This document shows positions 8,501 through 18,996 of a stretch of DNA of 20,577 bases, piece after piece. Position 1 is the stretch's first letter, and every line of letters begins with the position of its first letter. The DNA is taken from the IMG/VR virus record IMGVR_UViG_2695420478_000010; one strand, written 5' to 3'. This stretch comes from a virus. Its lineage: Duplodnaviria > Heunggongvirae > Uroviricota > Caudoviricetes. The notes beneath the pieces are model-generated. The model was not told the DNA's origin. It did not search any database and was given only the letters and a program-made list of their open reading frames with translations. Position numbers and translations under genes: made by a program.

Positions 8501-9346
8501 ATGACCGAATTTACAACTCTTCTTCAGCAAGGAAACGCCTGGTTCTTCATCCCCAGCGCCATCTTACTTGGTGCGCTTCATGGCCTGGAACCAGGGCACT
8601 CAAAAACGATGATGGCGGCGTTTATCATCGCCATCAAAGGCACCATTAAACAAGCGGTGATGCTCGGACTGGCAGCAACTATTTCGCATACCGCAGTGGT
8701 CTGGTTAATTGCCTTTGGCGGGATGGTGATCAGCAAGCGCTTTACTGCTCAATCAGCAGAACCGTGGCTCCAGCTGATTTCCGCAGTGATCATTATTGGC
8801 ACCGCGTTCTGGATGTTCTGGCGTACCTGGCGCGGCGAACGCAACTGGCTGGAGAATATGCACGAGTATGATTATGAGCATCATCACCATCATCACGATC
8901 ACGAACATCATCAAGACCACGAACATCACCACGACCATGGACATCATCACCATCACGAACATGGCGAGTATCAGGATGCCCATGCACGAGCCCATGCCAA
9001 TGACATTAAACGACGCTTTGATGGTAGAGAGGTCACCAACTGGCAAATTTTGTTATTTGGCTTAACCGGTGGCCTTATCCCCTGCCTGGCAGCAATTACC
9101 GTGCTATTGATATGCATTCAGTTGAAAGCCCTGACACTGGGCGCAACACTGGTCGTCAGTTTCAGCATTGGCCTGGCGTTTACGCTTGTCACCGTAGGCG
9201 TTGGCGCAGCAATCAGCGTTCAGCAGGTCGCAAAACGCTGGAGCGGATTTAACACTCTCGCTAAACGCGCCCCCTATTTTTCCAGTCTGTTGATTGGCTT
9301 AGTCGGTGTGTATATGGGCGTACATGGCTTCATGGGCATAATGTGA
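8501..9346 (+). CDS. rcnA: RcnA nickel/cobalt efflux protein with histidine-rich loop
   Basis: 281-aa membrane protein; loop HEYDYEHHHHHHDHEHHQDHEHHHDHGHHHHHEH encoded at about 8870-8965. Confidence 0.93.
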   Translation: MTEFTTLLQQGNAWFFIPSAILLGALHGLEPGHSKTMMAAFIIAIKGTIKQAVMLGLAATISHTAVVWLIAFGGMVISKRFTAQSAEPWLQLISAVIIIGTAFWMFWRTWRGERNWLENMHEYDYEHHHHHHDHEHHQDHEHHHDHGHHHHHEHGEYQDAHARAHANDIKRRFDGREVTNWQILLFGLTGGLIPCLAAITVLLICIQLKALTLGATLVVSFSIGLAFTLVTVGVGAAISVQQVAKRWSGFNTLAKRAPYFSSLLIGLVGVYMGVHGFMGIM

Positions 9347-9567
9347 TAACTCAATCCTTTAGGCTTGCATGTTATCTTCAGCCCAGGATGATTCTTAAAT
9401 CAGCTATTTCCGCTGACTCTCTGCTCGCTAAGGATGCTTTTAGGGCATCCTTTCATTTACACTTTTTACGAAATCATGGGATCACTAACAAAATATCGCT
9501 TGTCAGTTATATTGTATGGCAGGAAAGATATGCGACTGATATTACAGATCCCCAAAGTGGAGAGTTT

Positions 9568-9906
9568 ATGACCATTAAAAATAAGATGTTACTGGGTGCG
9601 CTTTTGCTGGTTACCAGTGCCGCCTGGGCCGCACCAGCCACCGCGGGTTCGACCAATACCTCGGGAATTTCTAAGTATGAGTTAAGTAGTTTCATTGCTG
9701 ACTTTAAGCATTTCAAACCAGGGGACACCGTACCAGAAATGTACCGTACCGATGAGTACAACATTAAGCAGTGGCAGTTGCGTAACCTGCCCGCGCCTGA
9801 TGCCGGGACGCACTGGACCTATATGGGTGGCGCGTACGTGTTGATCAGCGACACCGACGGTAAAATCATTAAAGCCTACGACGGTGAGATTTTTTATCAT
9901 CGCTAA
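9568..9906 (+). CDS. rcnB: RcnB (YohN) periplasmic protein
   Basis: ATG at 9568 preceded by GGAGAG; signal-peptide-like N-terminus MTIKNKMLLGALLLVTSAAWA; the track ORF from 9343 is an upstream extension without RBS. Confidence 0.85.
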   Translation: MTIKNKMLLGALLLVTSAAWAAPATAGSTNTSGISKYELSSFIADFKHFKPGDTVPEMYRTDEYNIKQWQLRNLPAPDAGTHWTYMGGAYVLISDTDGKIIKAYDGEIFYHR

Positions 9907-9931
9907 AAAAAGCCCCCTCATCATGAGGGGG
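9904..9931 (-). terminator. Terminator hairpin between convergent rcnB and yehA; T-run is on the minus strand
   Basis: CCCCCTCA / TGAGGGGG stem (9913-9931) with 3-nt loop; minus strand continues CTTTTTTT, overlapping the rcnB stop codon. Confidence 0.6.
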
Positions 9932-9987: not shown

Positions 9988-11022
9988 TTAGTCGTATTTC
10001 ACGTTGATTAATGCGGTTGCCTCCAGTGCGCCAGATTTAACTTTGTTTGTATCGTAGACGTAGTAACTGGCTGTTATCGGAATTGAAACCGTTGTATCTG
10101 TAAGTTTTGACTTTGCCGCAATTTCTTTTAAATTTGTGTATCCTTTACTGCTGTTAGTGATATTTAAAAGTGTGACTGGCGAACCATTACTTTCAAGAAT
10201 AAATCCTACGCCATTATCTTCCGCACCTTTCAGTATTGTGTTGCTGTTGGTTAACAAGTCAGAACTTGATAAATACACCTGCATTTTCCGTGATGTTTGA
10301 TTTTGTTGACCTAATAAACTTTTACAACGCAGAATAATATCCCCTTGTTTACTATTTATTGTTGCTTTGTTACCTGTGGCTGGTAATTGTGAAACGGGAA
10401 TGCTGTCTAAAGTAATTAATAAATCGTCCGGTTTGCAGGTTGTGGTTATCGGGTTGTATGACAATGTCAGATTAAAGGAATAGACACCTGCATTTTGTGC
10501 CAATGCATTTCTGTAGTTATTTACACATGCATCCCATGACTTGCCACCTAATAAACACAGTAGAAATTGTACTGCGGCACTCCCGCGTGTCGATGATGAA
10601 GCACTGGATAATGTCGCAACACCATTAATCATCACTGAACCGCCGCCCCCCGCAGAAACATTCACTTTTGCATTACTGGCCGCAGGTGTCACCGTAACTG
10701 AATAACCACTGGTGAAACTGGTCTGATTATTTGACAACGTGATGTTGTTTTTATTGGTCCATTCAAAATGTAAATTTAATTTTATGGTATCGTTATAAAG
10801 TCCAACAATAATATCCGACGGGCTCATAGGGGTGATAGTATTTGTACTCACGCATGACGAATCATTAAAAGTATGCTCATATGTCGCCATTTGTGTTTGA
10901 GTAAGTGCAAAATCCCCCTGAACAACCAAGTTGTGCTGAACAGATAACTCACTATAACATGCCGCATAGCTCACAGGCATAACCATCATCATTAATATAA
11001 ATTGCATTATGCGAATTTCCAT
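9988..11022 (-). CDS. yehA: YehA, putative fimbrial adhesin/minor subunit
   Basis: 344-aa secreted protein with signal peptide; last gene of the yehDCBA cluster. Confidence 0.85.
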   Translation of the reverse strand: MEIRIMQFILMMMVMPVSYAACYSELSVQHNLVVQGDFALTQTQMATYEHTFNDSSCVSTNTITPMSPSDIIVGLYNDTIKLNLHFEWTNKNNITLSNNQTSFTSGYSVTVTPAASNAKVNVSAGGGGSVMINGVATLSSASSSTRGSAAVQFLLCLLGGKSWDACVNNYRNALAQNAGVYSFNLTLSYNPITTTCKPDDLLITLDSIPVSQLPATGNKATINSKQGDIILRCKSLLGQQNQTSRKMQVYLSSSDLLTNSNTILKGAEDNGVGFILESNGSPVTLLNITNSSKGYTNLKEIAAKSKLTDTTVSIPITASYYVYDTNKVKSGALEATALINVKYD

Positions 11023-11037
11023 AGAACCACCTGACTA

Positions 11038-13518
11038 TTACTGGCAAATATAATTTCTACTTTCATCAATCTCTTTACCGAAGGTGATTGTGCATGAAAG
11101 TCCTTGTTGCTTATCAATTGCCACATTAACCGATGGCGGTACTTCATTGGTGCGAATAAATAACTGGCTTCCCTGGCCGACAACGCCAATATTATGACCA
11201 TGGATATCATTGACTTCATAACCAAACATTAATGGTTGACCATCCGCTCTTAACGCTTTTATAAACCAGGGCTTGCGCTGATCGGTATCAAAATTAACCA
11301 GTACAACCGCGCCGCGATAAGGTGCGGCAATTTTCCGGTTGCCACGTAATTCTGCTTCGCTATCGCTTTGCGACACATCCAGCATCAGGTGATTTTCCCG
11401 ATAAGGTGTCATTCCGTCGTATATCACCACTCCATTACGGTTTGTTGTGCGATATTTTTGCCCATTGACATAAGCATCTTTAATTCCTGGCGCATTCATC
11501 ACAGCAAACGTTTCGGAAAGACGGTTCGCCAGATTAACGCCACCCGACCAGGCGACAATGCCCCCTGAAACACTGGCTCCAGCCTGTCGATAAGTACTCG
11601 ACTGACTATAACTGCCATTCACTGTCGCAACCGGCGCGTTCCAGGTCAAATTCGCCCCAGCTGTCGTTTCATTTTCCTGATGCTGATAACTCAGGTTGAC
11701 CCCATAGTTAAACTGATCCCGGCTTCCAACGGTTCCTGATAATCCCGTATTATTTGAGGCAACCCCCTGATCATCAAACGTCGTTGAGTTAGACATATAT
11801 ATTTGCCGACGAAGCGTCGTAACGTCATCACCCCAATCAAAGGGAATCGATATAAAAATATTAAAACGTTTCTCTTCATGATGATTCTCGTCATACGCCT
11901 GGCTTGCCGCGAGGGTATAGCTTATCCGCCGCCAGTTATTGGAATAACTCAACTGATAATCCTTACTGCTGCCGCTACGCCCCCAGTAATCTCGCCATAA
12001 CGTACTTAAGGACACAGACCCCCAGCCTTCTGGCAATGACTGGCTCATATTGGCAGAAAAGCTATTTTTACGGCCAAAATCGTTCTGGTAATAATCGGCA
12101 ATGTCATAGATATCGTTTTTATCACGGCGATAATTATCTTTATTGTTTGCCCAAACGTGATCGTTAAATGTCCGGTAATCACGCGACAAATAACGCCAGG
12201 CCGCCAGACCAAAACGCGTCGACGTTTGGCTCACAAATTTGTTGTAGGCAATTTGATAACTTTGCCCGTCAAACACATCGCCGTTGTCTTGTTTACTATG
12301 CGACTTCGTGGCATCGACGGAAATGGCACCAATGCGGGTATTCCAGCCAGTCCCCAAAGTGAACGCGTAATAATTATTCGCGACCATCGAGCCACCATAC
12401 AGCGTCAATAAATTATTAAAACCATACTGATAACCCGCCTGGACAAAATCACTTTGTTTGCTCGCCCCTTCAATATGGCTACGACCCGCCGCAAAATCAT
12501 ATTTCGATACGCCGGGTTGCAGCATATTTGGCACCGCTGCATAAGGTACCAGATAGGTGGTAACCGAGCCGTCCGCCTCTTTCACGCTGACATCAAGATC
12601 TGCTCCACCACCGGCCAACTGCAAATCTGTAATCGCAAACGGGCCAGGAGGAACCTCTTTCTGATAAACGACAAAACCATTCTGTTCAATAGTTACCAGC
12701 GCGTTACTCTGAGCAATCCCCTGCACCCGTGGCGTAAAATTTTGTTTCGAGTTAGGCAACATCTGCATATCACGAAACAACCGCACACCGCTGAAGCGAA
12801 CAGAATCAAAAATATCGCTTGATGTATACATATCACCCACGCGAAGCGTGCCGAGAAGTTGGGCAAATCCACGTTCCAGATACAGGGTATTGCTTTTCCA
12901 CACCCCTGGATTGTTATTTGTTTTACTGAAACTGGCATCAGAATGCAGTTGCCACCCCAGTAAATTTAACCCGCTGTTAAAACGTACATATGTACTCTTG
13001 TTATTACCCGACGCTTTATAGTCGCTGTAATACTGACTCACATAATAAGAGGTATAAAACGCATTAATACCCCGCTCCCAGTTTTCCGGTGGAACATAGC
13101 CACTTTCCAGTTCTTCCACCCAAGCCTGCGGGACACTGAAATCGAGACGAAAAACCCCGATATCCCAGCTATAGCTCCCACCCTGAACAAGTTGCTCAAA
13201 TGTTAAACATTGCTTACCACTGGCGAAGTTATCGCTATTAATGCCTAACCGCTTGATAACTTCTCTTGATAAACATGTTTCTTGCGGGTTGTCTTTAACA
13301 ATGATCTCATATTTCCCGCGCCATTGCTTATTGACATAAATATCGATGTCATACTGCCCCGGCAAGGGTTGATTATCATCAAGACGAATATTTGCAACCT
13401 GCTGGTCTTTCATTCCACCTATCATAAAATGGGTATCAAAGGTTTCTTCAGCTGCATAAGCTTCAATGCCGAGCAATAACGCTACGATTGCTGATGCAAG
13501 TGGGGTCATTCTCAACAT
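11038..13518 (-). CDS. yehB: YehB, fimbrial outer-membrane usher
   Basis: About 826 aa with usher-like features and signal peptide MLRMTPLASAIVALLLGIEAYA; the ORF track adds 5 N-terminal residues. Confidence 0.9.
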   Translation of the reverse strand: MLRMTPLASAIVALLLGIEAYAAEETFDTHFMIGGMKDQQVANIRLDDNQPLPGQYDIDIYVNKQWRGKYEIIVKDNPQETCLSREVIKRLGINSDNFASGKQCLTFEQLVQGGSYSWDIGVFRLDFSVPQAWVEELESGYVPPENWERGINAFYTSYYVSQYYSDYKASGNNKSTYVRFNSGLNLLGWQLHSDASFSKTNNNPGVWKSNTLYLERGFAQLLGTLRVGDMYTSSDIFDSVRFSGVRLFRDMQMLPNSKQNFTPRVQGIAQSNALVTIEQNGFVVYQKEVPPGPFAITDLQLAGGGADLDVSVKEADGSVTTYLVPYAAVPNMLQPGVSKYDFAAGRSHIEGASKQSDFVQAGYQYGFNNLLTLYGGSMVANNYYAFTLGTGWNTRIGAISVDATKSHSKQDNGDVFDGQSYQIAYNKFVSQTSTRFGLAAWRYLSRDYRTFNDHVWANNKDNYRRDKNDIYDIADYYQNDFGRKNSFSANMSQSLPEGWGSVSLSTLWRDYWGRSGSSKDYQLSYSNNWRRISYTLAASQAYDENHHEEKRFNIFISIPFDWGDDVTTLRRQIYMSNSTTFDDQGVASNNTGLSGTVGSRDQFNYGVNLSYQHQENETTAGANLTWNAPVATVNGSYSQSSTYRQAGASVSGGIVAWSGGVNLANRLSETFAVMNAPGIKDAYVNGQKYRTTNRNGVVIYDGMTPYRENHLMLDVSQSDSEAELRGNRKIAAPYRGAVVLVNFDTDQRKPWFIKALRADGQPLMFGYEVNDIHGHNIGVVGQGSQLFIRTNEVPPSVNVAIDKQQGLSCTITFGKEIDESRNYICQ

Positions 13519-13533
13519 AGACAGCTCCTGCAA

Positions 13534-14208
13534 TTAAATTTTGTCACTAATATAGTTGCCGTGGTCATCGATAATGGTCAGATACCAGTTGTTTGCATTA
13601 TTACTTTTGACATTAACACTCTGACTTTCTAAGGGGGCAATCATAATAGTTTCATAATTGACTTTGACATTATTAGCTTTGACATCCGAAATCGTCACCC
13701 AATTAGCTGAGTCATTTTTTATCACCAATCCATTGCCACTGCGATTTATCAGTAACTTTTTAAAGGTCGCTTTATTCACCGGAGCAATACCCGCCGGCCG
13801 GTAAAACAATTTGATTCTGTTTTGCATCGCAAACTTCAGTGCATTCTTACCTTCTTGTTCTGGACTATTCGGTGGAATATCCAGAACATTAAGATAAAAA
13901 ATACTTTCCTTATTACTGGGTAATTTATTAGGCATGATTTTAATTTTTATTTGTTGCCCAGAATTGGCCGCTACTTTCACTACTGGTGGCGTTAACATGA
14001 AAGGAACCTGAATCTTTTCTGGCGGCAGAGACGTGTCGCCATCATCAATCCACGCCTGCATCAGCGAAGAGCGGTTTCCCTGATTCATCAGTTGTACCAT
14101 GACCTCTTTCTGCTCTGCCGGGTAAATGATACGGGTCCCGAAAATAACCATTCCGGCATGCACGGGGAATATCATAGAAGAGATGAGTAAAGATAATAAC
14201 CCTTTCAT
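13534..14208 (-). CDS. yehC: YehC, periplasmic fimbrial chaperone
   Basis: Start placed at the ATG at 14208 (AAGAGG RBS, signal peptide MKGLLSLLISSMIFPVHAG); the track's start at 14256 lies inside a palindrome and lacks an RBS. Confidence 0.85.
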   Translation of the reverse strand: MKGLLSLLISSMIFPVHAGMVIFGTRIIYPAEQKEVMVQLMNQGNRSSLMQAWIDDGDTSLPPEKIQVPFMLTPPVVKVAANSGQQIKIKIMPNKLPSNKESIFYLNVLDIPPNSPEQEGKNALKFAMQNRIKLFYRPAGIAPVNKATFKKLLINRSGNGLVIKNDSANWVTISDVKANNVKVNYETIMIAPLESQSVNVKSNNANNWYLTIIDDHGNYISDKI

Positions 14209-14232
14209 CTTAATGCCTCTTATATTTATGCT

Positions 14233-14256
14233 GGCCGCCATGAATATGGCGGCCAT
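14233..14256 (-). promoter_or_regulatory. Perfect 10-bp inverted repeat (TGGCCGCCAT gaat ATGGCGGCCA) between yehD and yehC
   Basis: Palindrome read directly; sits between the major-subunit gene and the chaperone gene, the position of mRNA-processing/attenuator hairpins in other chaperone-usher operons. Confidence 0.4.
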
Positions 14257-14295
14257 TTTAACTTACTGAAAAAACAAGATGATTATTTTAAATAT

Positions 14296-14838
14296 TTAAT
14301 CCTGGGCAACACGCATAACCAATGAAGAGTTAACAGTACCAGATGCAACACCACTGTCAGTCAACTTCAGATATTTTGCCTTAAACGGTATTGCATATTG
14401 TCCATCAGCAGTTTTATAACTTTCAATATTAAATGGTGCGGAAATATCCAGTACGTCACTGCTATCTCCCAAATAGAGATAGTATCCAACTGTGTCATTA
14501 CTACTGGATATTGCCTTATCATTACCAAGAATTTTCTCGTTGGTGATCAACGAAAGTTTTACGCCATCAATAGTCTTCGGACAAGTAATTTTCAGCATAC
14601 TGCTGGTTACACCAACCGCGCCATCATAAGTTGAATATTTCGCTTTACCATCAAATACAGTGGTGGGTACAGTCGGCATATTAATACTGACTGAATCACC
14701 GCCAGCGACAAATGTACATGGTGATTCAGCAATATTACCTTTAATGGTTAAAGTTCCGGTATCTACTTCAGCAGCGAAAATACCAGCACTCATAAATACA
14801 GAAGATAAGACAGCGACAGCAATAATTGAATGTTTCAT
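14296..14838 (-). CDS. yehD: YehD, major fimbrial subunit
   Basis: 180-aa ORF with AAGGAA RBS and signal peptide; first gene of the yehDCBA operon. Confidence 0.85.
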   Translation of the reverse strand: MKHSIIAVAVLSSVFMSAGIFAAEVDTGTLTIKGNIAESPCTFVAGGDSVSINMPTVPTTVFDGKAKYSTYDGAVGVTSSMLKITCPKTIDGVKLSLITNEKILGNDKAISSSNDTVGYYLYLGDSSDVLDISAPFNIESYKTADGQYAIPFKAKYLKLTDSGVASGTVNSSLVMRVAQD

Positions 14839-15065
14839 GATGCATTCCTTAATAAGTTTATTTTGTTTTGTTAAGAGTCTGTATCTCTTGGAAACAAATT
14901 TCTCACATCAAAAAAGTTGCCGCAATGTAAACATATTGTTTTGTTGATTTAAAACAAATTAACTAATGCGATATAAATACAACAAATAATTCGCTATAAC
15001 AAACATTTTTGAAACTGATTAATTACCGTAAATTACCGTAAATAACATTCATTAGGTGAATAAAA

Positions 15066-15099
15066 AAGCCAAAATCATTCATAGGAATGATTTTGGCTT
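15066..15099 (-). terminator. Bidirectional rho-independent terminator downstream of yehE
   Basis: Perfect 15-bp stem AAGCCAAAATCATTC / GAATGATTTTGGCTT with 4-nt loop, A-run on one side and T-run on the other. Confidence 0.6.
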
Positions 15100-15136
15100 T
15101 TTAAATATGCTTAATGCTTAAAACGGTGTTGGCAAA

Positions 15137-15418
15137 TTAATCGTAGCGATTTAACACGATTTTGCGTTTGTCGTTATTACCCACAGTTACCACTTCTGTC
15201 GTAACGCCTTTTGCAGTAGAAGAAGCACGATAGTTGGTTTCAACTCGTTGTAACAACTGCCCACAACGTTGCTGAAGATGATTATTAACAACATCCATAC
15301 TGCATGTAGGGGAACTAATTCTGCCATTGATGGTTAATGTTGCAGTCTCTGAAGAGAACGCGGGAGAAGCCAATCCATAGGCAAGAAAAATAATTCCTGA
15401 CAGCCAATACTTATTCAT
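15137..15418 (-). CDS. yehE: YehE, small secreted protein of unknown function
   Basis: 93-aa ORF with signal-peptide-like N-terminus MNKYWLSGIIFLAYGLASPAFS; position matches yehE of E. coli. Confidence 0.7.
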   Translation of the reverse strand: MNKYWLSGIIFLAYGLASPAFSSETATLTINGRISSPTCSMDVVNNHLQQRCGQLLQRVETNYRASSTAKGVTTEVVTVGNNDKRKIVLNRYD

Positions 15419-15680
15419 TGAACGTTATCCCTGTAGTAAAGGTTATGCCTGGATAGAATGAGTGCATAACAAACTATAGCTGTACATCCACTACACAGCC
15501 ACGAAGGATGATAATGAAGCATTGCCTGTACGATCAATCGACTTTGTAGAGTTTCGGACGAAGGTCCGCAGAATATTCGCAGTATTAAATAAGTGTTCAT
15601 TAATGCGGCAAAAACAAATACACCGCATCAATATAACATCTCTGCGGTGTATGAAGAATAACCAGAATGGTTAATAGGCG

Positions 15681-16790: not shown

Positions 16791-16921
16791 CCCGACTCCT
16801 TTTTTGTATAGATAAACCATCAGCTGATAGTTTACCTGAAGAATATAGAGAAGTACTTACTTAACATTTTCCCATTTGGTACTATCTAACCCCTTTTCAC
16901 TATTAAGAAGTAATGCCTACT

Positions 16922-18955
16922 ATGACTCAAGTCGCGAAGAAAATTCTGGTGACGTGCGCACTGCCGTACGCTAACGGCTCAATCCACCTCGGCCATATGC
17001 TGGAGCACATCCAGGCTGATGTCTGGGTCCGTTACCAGCGAATGCGCGGCCACGAGGTCAACTTCATCTGCGCCGACGATGCCCACGGTACACCGATCAT
17101 GCTGAAAGCTCAGCAGCTTGGTATCACCCCGGAGCAGATGATTGGCGAAATGAGTCAGGAGCATCAGACTGATTTCGCAGGCTTTAACATCAGCTATGAC
17201 AACTATCACTCGACGCACAGCGAAGAGAACCGCCAGTTGTCAGAACTTATCTACTCTCGCCTGAAAGAAAACGGTTTTATTAAAAACCGCACCATCTCTC
17301 AGCTGTACGATCCGGAAAAAGGCATGTTCCTGCCGGACCGTTTTGTAAAAGGCACCTGCCCGAAATGTAAATCCCCGGATCAATACGGCGATAACTGCGA
17401 AGTCTGCGGCGCGACCTACAGCCCGACTGAATTGATCGAGCCGAAATCGGTGGTTTCTGGCGCTACGCCGGTAATGCGTGATTCTGAACACTTCTTCTTT
17501 GATCTGCCCTCTTTCAGCGAAATGTTGCAGGCATGGACCCGCAGCGGTGCGTTGCAGGAGCAGGTGGCAAATAAAATGCAGGAGTGGTTTGAATCTGGCC
17601 TGCAACAGTGGGATATCTCCCGCGACGCGCCGTACTTCGGTTTTGAAATTCCGAACGCGCCGGGTAAATATTTCTACGTCTGGCTAGATGCGCCGATTGG
17701 CTATATGGGTTCTTTCAAGAATCTGTGCGACAAGCGCGGCGACAGCGTAAGCTTCGATGAATACTGGAAGAAAGACTCCACCGCCGAGCTGTACCACTTC
17801 ATCGGTAAAGATATTGTTTACTTCCACAGTCTGTTCTGGCCAGCAATGCTGGAAGGCAGCAACTTCCGCAAGCCGACCAACCTGTTTGTTCATGGCTATG
17901 TGACGGTGAACGGCGCGAAGATGTCTAAGTCTCGCGGTACCTTTATTAAAGCCAGCACCTGGCTGAATCATTTTGACGCCGACAGCCTGCGTTACTACTA
18001 CACTGCGAAACTCTCTTCGCGCATTGATGATATCGATCTCAACCTGGAAGATTTCGTTCAGCGCGTGAATGCCGATATCGTGAACAAAGTGGTTAACCTG
18101 GCCTCCCGCAACGCGGGCTTTATCAACAAGCGTTTTGACGGCGTGCTGGCAAGCGAACTGGCTGACCCGCAGTTGTACAGAACCTTCACTGATGCCGCTG
18201 AAGTGATTGGTGAAGCGTGGGAAAGCCGCGAATTTGGTAAAGCAGTGCGCGAAATCATGGCGCTGGCTGATCTGGCTAACCGCTATGTCGATGAACAGGC
18301 TCCGTGGGTGGTAGCGAAACAGGAAGGCCGCGATGCCGACCTGCAGGCAATTTGCTCAATGGGCATAAACATGTTCCGCGTGCTGATGACTTACCTGAAG
18401 CCGGTACTGCCGAAACTGACCGAGCGCGCAGAAGCATTCCTTAATACGGAACTGACCTGGGATGGTATCCAGCAACCGCTGCTGGGCCATAAAGTGAATC
18501 CGTTCAAGGCGCTGTATAACCGCATAGATATGAAGCAGGTTGAAGCACTGGTGGAAGCGTCTAAAGAAGAAGTGAAAGCAGCTGCCGCGCCGGTAACTGG
18601 CCCGCTGGCAGATGATCCGATTCAGGAAACCATCACCTTTGACGACTTCGCCAAAGTTGACCTGCGCGTGGCGCTGATTGAAAACGCAGAGTTTGTTGAA
18701 GGTTCTGACAAACTGCTACGCCTGACGCTGGATCTCGGCGGCGAAAAGCGTAATGTCTTCTCCGGCATTCGTTCTGCTTACCCGGATCCGCAGGCACTGA
18801 TTGGTCGTCACACCATTATGGTGGCTAACCTGGCACCACGTAAAATGCGCTTCGGTATCTCCGAAGGCATGGTGATGGCTGCCGGTCCTGGCGGGAAAGA
18901 TATTTTCCTGCTAAGCCCGGATGCTGGTGCTAAACCGGGTCATCAGGTGAAATAA
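16922..18955 (+). CDS. metG: Methionyl-tRNA synthetase
   Basis: Start [11 protein letters not shown]; class I HIGH motif (GSIHLGH), KMSKS motif, zinc-knuckle cysteines (CPKC ... CEVC). Confidence 0.95.
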
Positions 18956-18964
18956 TCCCCCTTC

Positions 18965-18996
18965 AAGGCGCTGCATCGACAGCGCCTTTTCTTTAT
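18965..18996 (+). terminator. Rho-independent terminator after metG
   Basis: AAGGCGCTG / CAGCGCCTT stem, 6-nt loop, then TTCTTTAT. Confidence 0.7.

Follow-up and report, generated by a model that had tools for sequence, protein, structure and literature searches.

A conserved stem-loop after the pilin gene of the yeh fimbrial operon, found in Escherichia with and without a U-tract

The window, i.e., the whole 20,577-nt stretch of DNA analyzed here (IMG/VR record IMGVR_UViG_2695420478_000010), carries a yeh chaperone-usher operon on its minus strand. Gene limits follow the RefSeq annotation of E. coli ECCTRSRTH03, a record that is 100% identical to the window over 13400-15500, converted to window coordinates. 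The major fimbrial subunit gene yehD (14296..14838, minus strand, 180 aa; a fimbrial subunit in RefSeq, also in the ORF list), whose 3' end is marked by the hairpin described below, is followed by an 87-nt intercistronic spacer (14209-14295) and then by the first downstream cistron, the periplasmic chaperone gene yehC (13534..14208, minus strand, 224 aa; RefSeq), the translation of which begins with a signal-peptide-like segment, MKGLLSLLISSMIFPVHA. Next come the usher gene yehB (11038..13518, minus strand; RefSeq and ORF list) and the last cistron of the operon, a 344-aa ORF (9988..11022, minus strand; ORF list), which we take to be yehA from the K-12 gene order. The RefSeq order of fimbrial protein, 87-nt spacer, chaperone and usher, all on one strand, puts the hairpin in a post-pilin position. 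Gene names are reversed between sources: in K-12 and RefSeq the major subunit is yehD and the 344-aa last gene is yehA, whereas in a 2026 paper on the Yeh adhesin the major subunit is yehA and the adhesin is yehD (PMC12778044).

The sequence-only reading had proposed a perfect 24-bp palindrome between yehD and yehC; the spacer limits that it gave, 14209-14295, agree exactly with the RefSeq gene ends. The palindrome, TGGCCGCCAT-GAAT-ATGGCGGCCA, with perfect 10-bp arms around a 4-nt centre, is not listed by a general repeat search and was verified by a direct string search, which confirmed its existence but moved it one base to the left, from the proposed 14233-14256 to 14232-14255. The palindrome is indeed strongly GC-rich, at 62.5% GC (70% in the stems), compared to 20.6% in the remaining 63 nt of the spacer, 42% in the operon and 46.7% in the window. 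On the coding strand, it corresponds to an RNA stem-loop (14232..14255, minus strand) with a 10-bp stem containing seven G-C pairs, an AUUC loop and a predicted energy of -18.6 kcal/mol. Two perfect stems of at least 10 bp with loops of 3-8 nt are present in the window, whereas 100 dinucleotide shuffles contain 0.07 on average and at most one; the predicted energy of the 116-nt region around the palindrome is -31.9 kcal/mol (z = -3.4), and the core of its fold is the 10-bp hairpin.

The spacer falls into three parts. The stop codon of yehD is followed by an A/U-rich 40-nt 3' UTR (14256..14295, minus strand), 47.5% identical to its K-12 counterpart, whose terminal AAAA abuts the stem. The hairpin comes next, and the segment 3' of it (14209..14231, minus strand) consists of GCAUAAAUAU, which is no U-tract, the yehC Shine-Dalgarno (SD) sequence AAGAGG (14216-14221, minus strand), 7 nt and the AUG at 14208; the flanks of the hairpin are A/U-rich and single-stranded. 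A longer yehC ORF, 13534-14256, starts at an ATG inside the 5' arm of the palindrome and would add MAAIFMAASINIRGIK before the signal peptide; it was rejected because 7 of the 10 distinct variants that differ from the window lack an in-frame upstream start and because RefSeq places the start at 14208. This historical reading frame, starting within the hairpin, is an annotation trap rather than coding sequence.

Other hairpins in the window provide context. The second perfect stem of at least 10 bp belongs to an AT-rich palindrome just downstream of yehE (15069-15096; CCAAAATCATTC-CTAT-GAATGATTTTGG on the coding strand, -13.3 kcal/mol), which is flanked by an A-run and a T-run and looks like a bidirectional terminator parting yehE from the yehD promoter region. 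A weak Rfam match to Qrr (15059-15162, minus strand; 30 bits against a gathering score of 50, E=0.005) overlaps this palindrome and is probably driven by the terminator. At the other end of the operon, a hairpin, CCCCCTCATGATGAGGGGG, is followed by CUUUUUUU (a tail also written CTTTTTTT) at 9913..9931 on the minus strand; lying between the 9988-11022 (minus) ORF and a convergent 9343-9906 (plus) ORF, it is likely the operon-end terminator and, with a tail score of 2.84, serves as an in-window comparator of a real terminator. Finally, a GC hairpin, AAGGCGCTGCATCGACAGCGCCTT, followed by TTCTTTAT (18965-18988), lies right after the 16913-18955 (plus) ORF, metG in RefSeq, and is an ordinary terminator. 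Three operon-end terminators in the window have tail scores of 2.8-3.2.

The yehD-yehC hairpin differs from these comparators in what follows it. Its 10-bp stem with seven G-C pairs and its 4-nt loop fit the stem-loop of an intrinsic terminator (a GC-rich stem of at least 5 bp with a loop of 3-8 nt), but the second hallmark of a sense-strand terminator, a U-rich stretch of 7-8 nt directly 3' of the stem, is missing from the window allele: as the sequence-only reading had noted, no clear T-run follows on the coding strand, the tail being GCAUAAAUAU with 2 U in 8 and a score of 0.25. A terminator scan of the window does not call the palindrome on the minus strand. A stable stem-loop without U-rich sequence after it is one of the features expected of an exonuclease-protective element.

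The orthologous hairpin of K-12, at the same position, has the opposite character. It reads GGCCGCUAU-CCC-AUGGCGGCC followed by UUUUAAUUU, and has a 9-bp stem with one U.G wobble, -14 kcal/mol and a tail score of 3.7, in contrast to the perfect 10-bp stem, -18.6 kcal/mol and tail score of 0.25 of the window hairpin; the 10 nt after the stem are UUUUAAUUUA in the K-12 allele and GCAUAAAUAU in the window allele. The same scan calls the K-12 allele as a sense (minus-strand) terminator, with the U-tract that the window allele lacks. Two allele classes can thus be distinguished. Members of the K-12 class (K-12, UTI89, E. ruysiae and others) have a 9-bp stem with one wobble, energies of -13 to -14.5 kcal/mol and the sense tail UUUUAAUUU, scoring 3.3-3.8, whereas members of the window class (the window, E. 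whittamii, the MOD1 strain and E. albertii) have a perfect stem at -17 to -19 kcal/mol and a sense tail of GCAUAAAUAU or similar, scoring 0.25-0.64. Judged by its sequence, the K-12-type hairpin with UUUUAAUUU, found in most E. coli, is a textbook intrinsic terminator; since UUUUAAUUU lies directly 3' of the stem, it would be expected to act as a leaky one. Autonomous termination at the window allele is expected to be weak because the U-tract is replaced by GCAUAAAUAU.

The window allele is in the minority. A 37-nt query comprising the palindrome with its immediate flanks (E<=10) found it in 368 of 5426 complete E. coli genomes, many of them O157:H7, at one place per genome, and a 116-nt query likewise matched a median of one place per genome; the many dispersed copies per genome that characterize REP and other repeated palindromes were not found in these 368 genomes. 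Identity of at least 99% over 13400-15500 is restricted to 48 of 5416 matching E. coli genomes, most of the others, K-12 included, being about 85% identical. Divergence from K-12 is confined to approximately 13900-15300 (67-85% identity), a mosaic segment that extends from the 5' part of yehC through the spacer, yehD and its upstream region into the 3' end of yehE; on either side, identity is mostly 97-100% and does not fall below 93%. The YehD protein is identical to that of K-12 at 155 of 181 positions, counting the stop. The resemblance of the minority allele to E. albertii, E. whittamii and cryptic-clade sequences suggests an old recombination at the pilin gene. An inverted copy of the K-12 hairpin and U-tract was considered as a source of the window allele and rejected, as the flanks, compared by eye, align better in direct than in reverse-complement orientation; a few substitutions and a 2-nt indel account for the U-tract difference. 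One matching place for the yehD-yehC region sits on a record typed as plasmid rather than chromosome.

Comparison of Escherichia spacers, gathered by a YehC genome scan and supplemented with further E. coli alleles into an alignment of 11 sequences, reveals that pairing is maintained while the surroundings drift. The stems of the window and K-12 share 17 of 18 positions, in a spacer that is 47.5% identical to K-12 5' of the hairpin, its least conserved part, 50% identical in the 10 nt 3' of the hairpin and 92% identical from SD to start, within a surrounding 1.4 kb of 67-85% identity. In the 11 variants the stem is paired in 97% of alignment cells, compared to 16-62% for slid-partner controls. 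Compensatory G-C to A-U changes are found at two pairs, one common to E. whittamii and E. albertii and the other in Escherichia sp. MOD1-EC7003, and G.U or U.G wobbles at two pairs, a covariation that represents few independent events in related sequences. RNAalifold predicts the hairpin helix, and no other helix, from this alignment.

The wobbles also identify the strand. Two wobble pairs, U.G in the K-12 class and G.U in the variant L052 and in Shigella, form on the coding strand only, their plus-strand counterparts being C-A and A-C mismatches, and in 5 of 6 K-12-class variants the sense fold exceeds the antisense fold in stability by 2-4 kcal/mol; in the window class, all pairs are Watson-Crick, so that class alone does not discriminate between strands. 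With 97% pairing, two compensatory pairs and two sense-only wobbles, the alignment has the signature of an RNA structure maintained on the coding strand, and the palindrome appears to behave as a selected RNA hairpin of the yeh coding strand, not as a DNA operator. In Shigella flexneri L039, the hairpin, which carries a C-A mismatch, has decayed to -6.6 kcal/mol; this variant also departs from all others in the region of the yehD stop codon and in the spacing of the yehC ribosome site. In E. coli Res13-Lact-PER04-33 (L055), the annotation shows a truncated yehC followed by an IS1 transposase gene, and the SD is AAAAGG. Both are examples of locus decay.

A hairpin at this position is not peculiar to Escherichia. 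The YehC genome scan returned Yeh-, Stc- and Yhl-like operons, orthologues and paralogues alike, from Citrobacter, Salmonella, Klebsiella, Kluyvera and Superficieibacter; the subunit-spacer-chaperone-usher layout is seen in 30 of 32 related loci. Nearly all of these loci have a GC hairpin of -12.5 to -21.8 kcal/mol, starting 3-29 nt past the subunit stop and unrelated in sequence to that of Escherichia. In 26 of 32 loci, no more than 2 of 200 shuffled sequences reach the minimum free energy of the native spacer (median z -3.3). On the sense strand, about half of the loci have 5 or more U in the 8 nt downstream; A-tracts upstream are not general. Together, the cross-genus hairpins and their variable tails indicate that the conserved feature is a sense-strand hairpin after the pilin gene, whereas the U-tract is variable. 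A sister operon, Yhl, is found mostly in phylogroup E (PMC12778044), and the second loci of E. whittamii and Escherichia sp. E1V33 (L023 and L025), with about 55% YehC identity, may represent it.

The sequence-only reading had suggested an mRNA-level hairpin, either a partial terminator or an mRNA stabilizer. On comparative evidence, an mRNA-level role is supported by the covariation, the coding-strand wobbles, the conservation of the stem in a diverged spacer, the cross-genus position and the K-12 U-tract. The two halves of the suggestion fare differently: a partial terminator fits the K-12-type allele, while the window allele, lacking the U-tract, is better described as an mRNA-stabilizing hairpin.

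Given a hairpin whose existence, stability, covariation, strand and family-wide position are established by this analysis, as is the U-tract difference between its alleles, we consider it probable, though well short of certain, that the palindrome is a cis-acting RNA stem-loop in the yehD 3' UTR, the Yeh post-pilin hairpin, which in the window acts as a nuclease barrier and lets yehD mRNA outlast or outnumber yehCBA. By analogy to characterized operons, the window hairpin is more likely to be a 3'-exonuclease barrier that would fix a stable yehD 3' end than an autonomous terminator. The nuclease-barrier mechanism that we infer would begin with a hypothetical endonucleolytic cut, or a termination event, further downstream of the hairpin; the hairpin would then halt 3'-to-5' exonucleases (PNPase and RNase II), leaving a stable monocistronic yehD message, and read-through transcripts would provide the chaperone, usher and adhesin (yehCBA). 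An effect on subunit:chaperone stoichiometry, also put forward in the sequence-only reading, is likewise suggested by analogy to pap and other systems.

As to the event that would expose the 3' end, a single RN|WUU-like site, GC|AUU at 14212-14216, lies between the SD and AUG of yehC and is a candidate cut site; RN|WUU-like motifs are frequent by chance. No rut-like excess of C over G was found downstream, the C/G ratio being 0.90-0.97 in 120-400 nt of the coding strand; a Rho route is therefore not indicated, and the endonuclease route is untouched by this result. Neither yehD nor yehC appears in the published transcriptome supplementary tables that were searched, which is unsurprising given the position of yehEDCBA in a chromatin domain that is statically silenced in K-12 (PMC12266141).

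Taken further, the allele comparison leads to a reading that we regard as improbable: the yehD-yehC spacer could be a natural allelic switch between a K-12-type intrinsic terminator and an O157:H7-type U-less element serving in processing or stability, or even as the scaffold of a FimR2-like regulatory RNA derived from the 3' UTR. If this were true, lineages would set the Yeh pilin:assembly stoichiometry, and possibly trans-regulation, by different mechanisms.

The hairpin could instead face the other way, as an intrinsic terminator that stops plus-strand transcripts arising in AT-rich yehCBA and thereby insulates yehD and its promoter. The plus-strand sequence after the stem is TTTTAAC, and the terminator scan does call the palindrome on the plus strand, and on that strand only, with the tail TTTTAACTTA and a window tail score of 3.1; all four window-class variants score 2.6-3.9 for the antisense tail, compared to 0.25-0.64 for the sense tail. 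These four variants, however, are not independent, and by a binomial estimate a spacer with about 40% A will have at least 5 A in the 8 nt upstream of the stem in about 17% of cases. Neither a promoter-like site nor a gene was found on the plus strand in 13534-14231, and promoter-like hits number 12, below the 17 expected from shuffles. Moreover, the K-12-class wobbles become C-A mismatches on the plus strand, where the fold is weaker in 5 of 6 variants, and the U-rich side is the sense side family-wide. An antisense-facing terminator is accordingly considered very unlikely.

An equally slim chance is given to the hairpin being the body of a trans-acting, 3' UTR-derived sRNA cut from yehD mRNA. 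The precedent is FimR2, an sRNA cut by RNase E from the fimA 3' UTR in the fimA-fimI spacer (PMC9723502). Like FimR2, the yeh element belongs to a pilin 3' UTR, in a hairpin-containing spacer that follows the major subunit gene in a chaperone-usher operon; the layout matches as well, with 40 nt of single-stranded, A/U-rich sequence preceding a stable hairpin. The yeh element differs in having no sequence or Rfam similarity to FimR2 and no GGA loop motif, and a yeh small RNA is hypothetical. An Rfam scan of the spacer at E<=10 produced sub-threshold, unrelated hits only; the 40 nt upstream of the hairpin, which would have to contain the seed, are the least conserved part of the spacer (47.5% identity); and the window allele has neither a U-tail for Hfq nor a loop GGA for CsrA.

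The missing U-tract could also be taken as a sign that the window hairpin is a functionless relic of a terminator whose U-tract was lost in this lineage, the operon being cryptic or silenced in laboratory strains (PMC12266141). This, too, is hard to credit: the U-less form is common to E. albertii, E. whittamii, a cryptic-clade strain and E. coli, compensatory changes hold its stem at -17 to -19 kcal/mol, stronger than the K-12 form, and the stem degrades where the locus is otherwise disrupted, as in Shigella L039.

A role in tuning yehC translation, through ribosome loading at the RBS or sequestration of the start codon by a larger fold, draws on the proximity of the stem, which ends 10 nt upstream of the SD, and on the minimum-free-energy fold of the window, which pairs UCAUCUU with AAGAUGA across the hairpin, over the yehC AUG. 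This long-range pairing does not recur in E. whittamii, E. albertii or any K-12-class variant, nor in the alignment fold, which contains the hairpin only and leaves SD and AUG unpaired; start-codon sequestration was rejected on these grounds, and the translational role as a whole is highly unlikely. Least probable is a DNA-level role as a site for a dimeric protein, a cruciform, a recombination site or a member of a REP-type repeat family, for although a perfect palindrome is the usual shape of an operator and symmetric double changes would also keep a symmetric protein site, the element occurs once in each of 368 genomes, lies 600 bp downstream from the promoter region of the operon, is replaced in other genera by hairpins of wholly different sequence at the same position and, in the K-12 class, carries G.U wobbles that break DNA symmetry and keep RNA pairing.

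The favored reading, a post-pilin stem-loop that in the window would protect the yehD message from exonucleases, describes an ordinary element. Chaperone-usher operons routinely carry a stable hairpin after the pilin gene, leading to an excess of pilin message, as has long been known, and a stable hairpin in this place belongs to an established kind. What is new is its documentation, with covariation, for the Yeh/Stc-like (γ4) fimbriae. The literature consulted holds no description of a post-yehD hairpin for yeh, recent work on Yeh being concerned with the adhesin (PMC12778044), and a full-text search for yehD together with terminator returned nothing on the yehD-yehC spacer.

The pap operon provides a close parallel. 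In pap, a leaky partial terminator between papA and papH lowers the level of downstream transcripts (PMC6524683, citing Baga 1985), and papA mRNA is shielded by an RNase-resistant 3' structure (PMC6524683, PMC5927463). Both pap and yeh have, in a single chaperone-usher operon, a GC-rich stem-loop directly downstream of the major pilin gene, with the assembly genes lying beyond it, and the proposed role of the pap element, as a source of excess pilin mRNA and of an RNase-resistant 3' end, is the one proposed here for the yeh hairpin. They differ in that the pap element is a functional leaky intrinsic terminator while the window yeh allele lacks a U-tract, and the two have no sequence similarity; a further feature of pap is its RNase E-processed papB-papA 5' side.

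The window allele can also be compared to U-less protective stem-loops. In malEFG, at malE-malF, and in many other operons, the upstream cistron is shielded from PNPase and RNase II by a stem-loop at its 3' end once the mRNA has been cut downstream, resulting in differential decay of the operon mRNA (PMC5927463), and genome-wide, transcripts that are not intrinsically terminated end at stable U-less hairpins, to which they are trimmed back by exonucleases (PMC6061677). The window hairpin resembles these elements in its terminator-like energy, the lack of a U-tract and an unstructured downstream segment (PMC6061677, PMC5927463), and is predicted, like them, to block PNPase and RNase II and stabilize the upstream cistron; it differs from them in being single-copy and thus not a REP element, in the lack of a downstream C>G bias and in the A-rich tract upstream. 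Terminators, it has been proposed, could switch class merely by altering the downstream uridines (PMC6061677). The two old yeh allele classes, with and without the U-tract and both present in E. coli, form a natural pair for just such an interconversion of a terminator and an exonuclease barrier.
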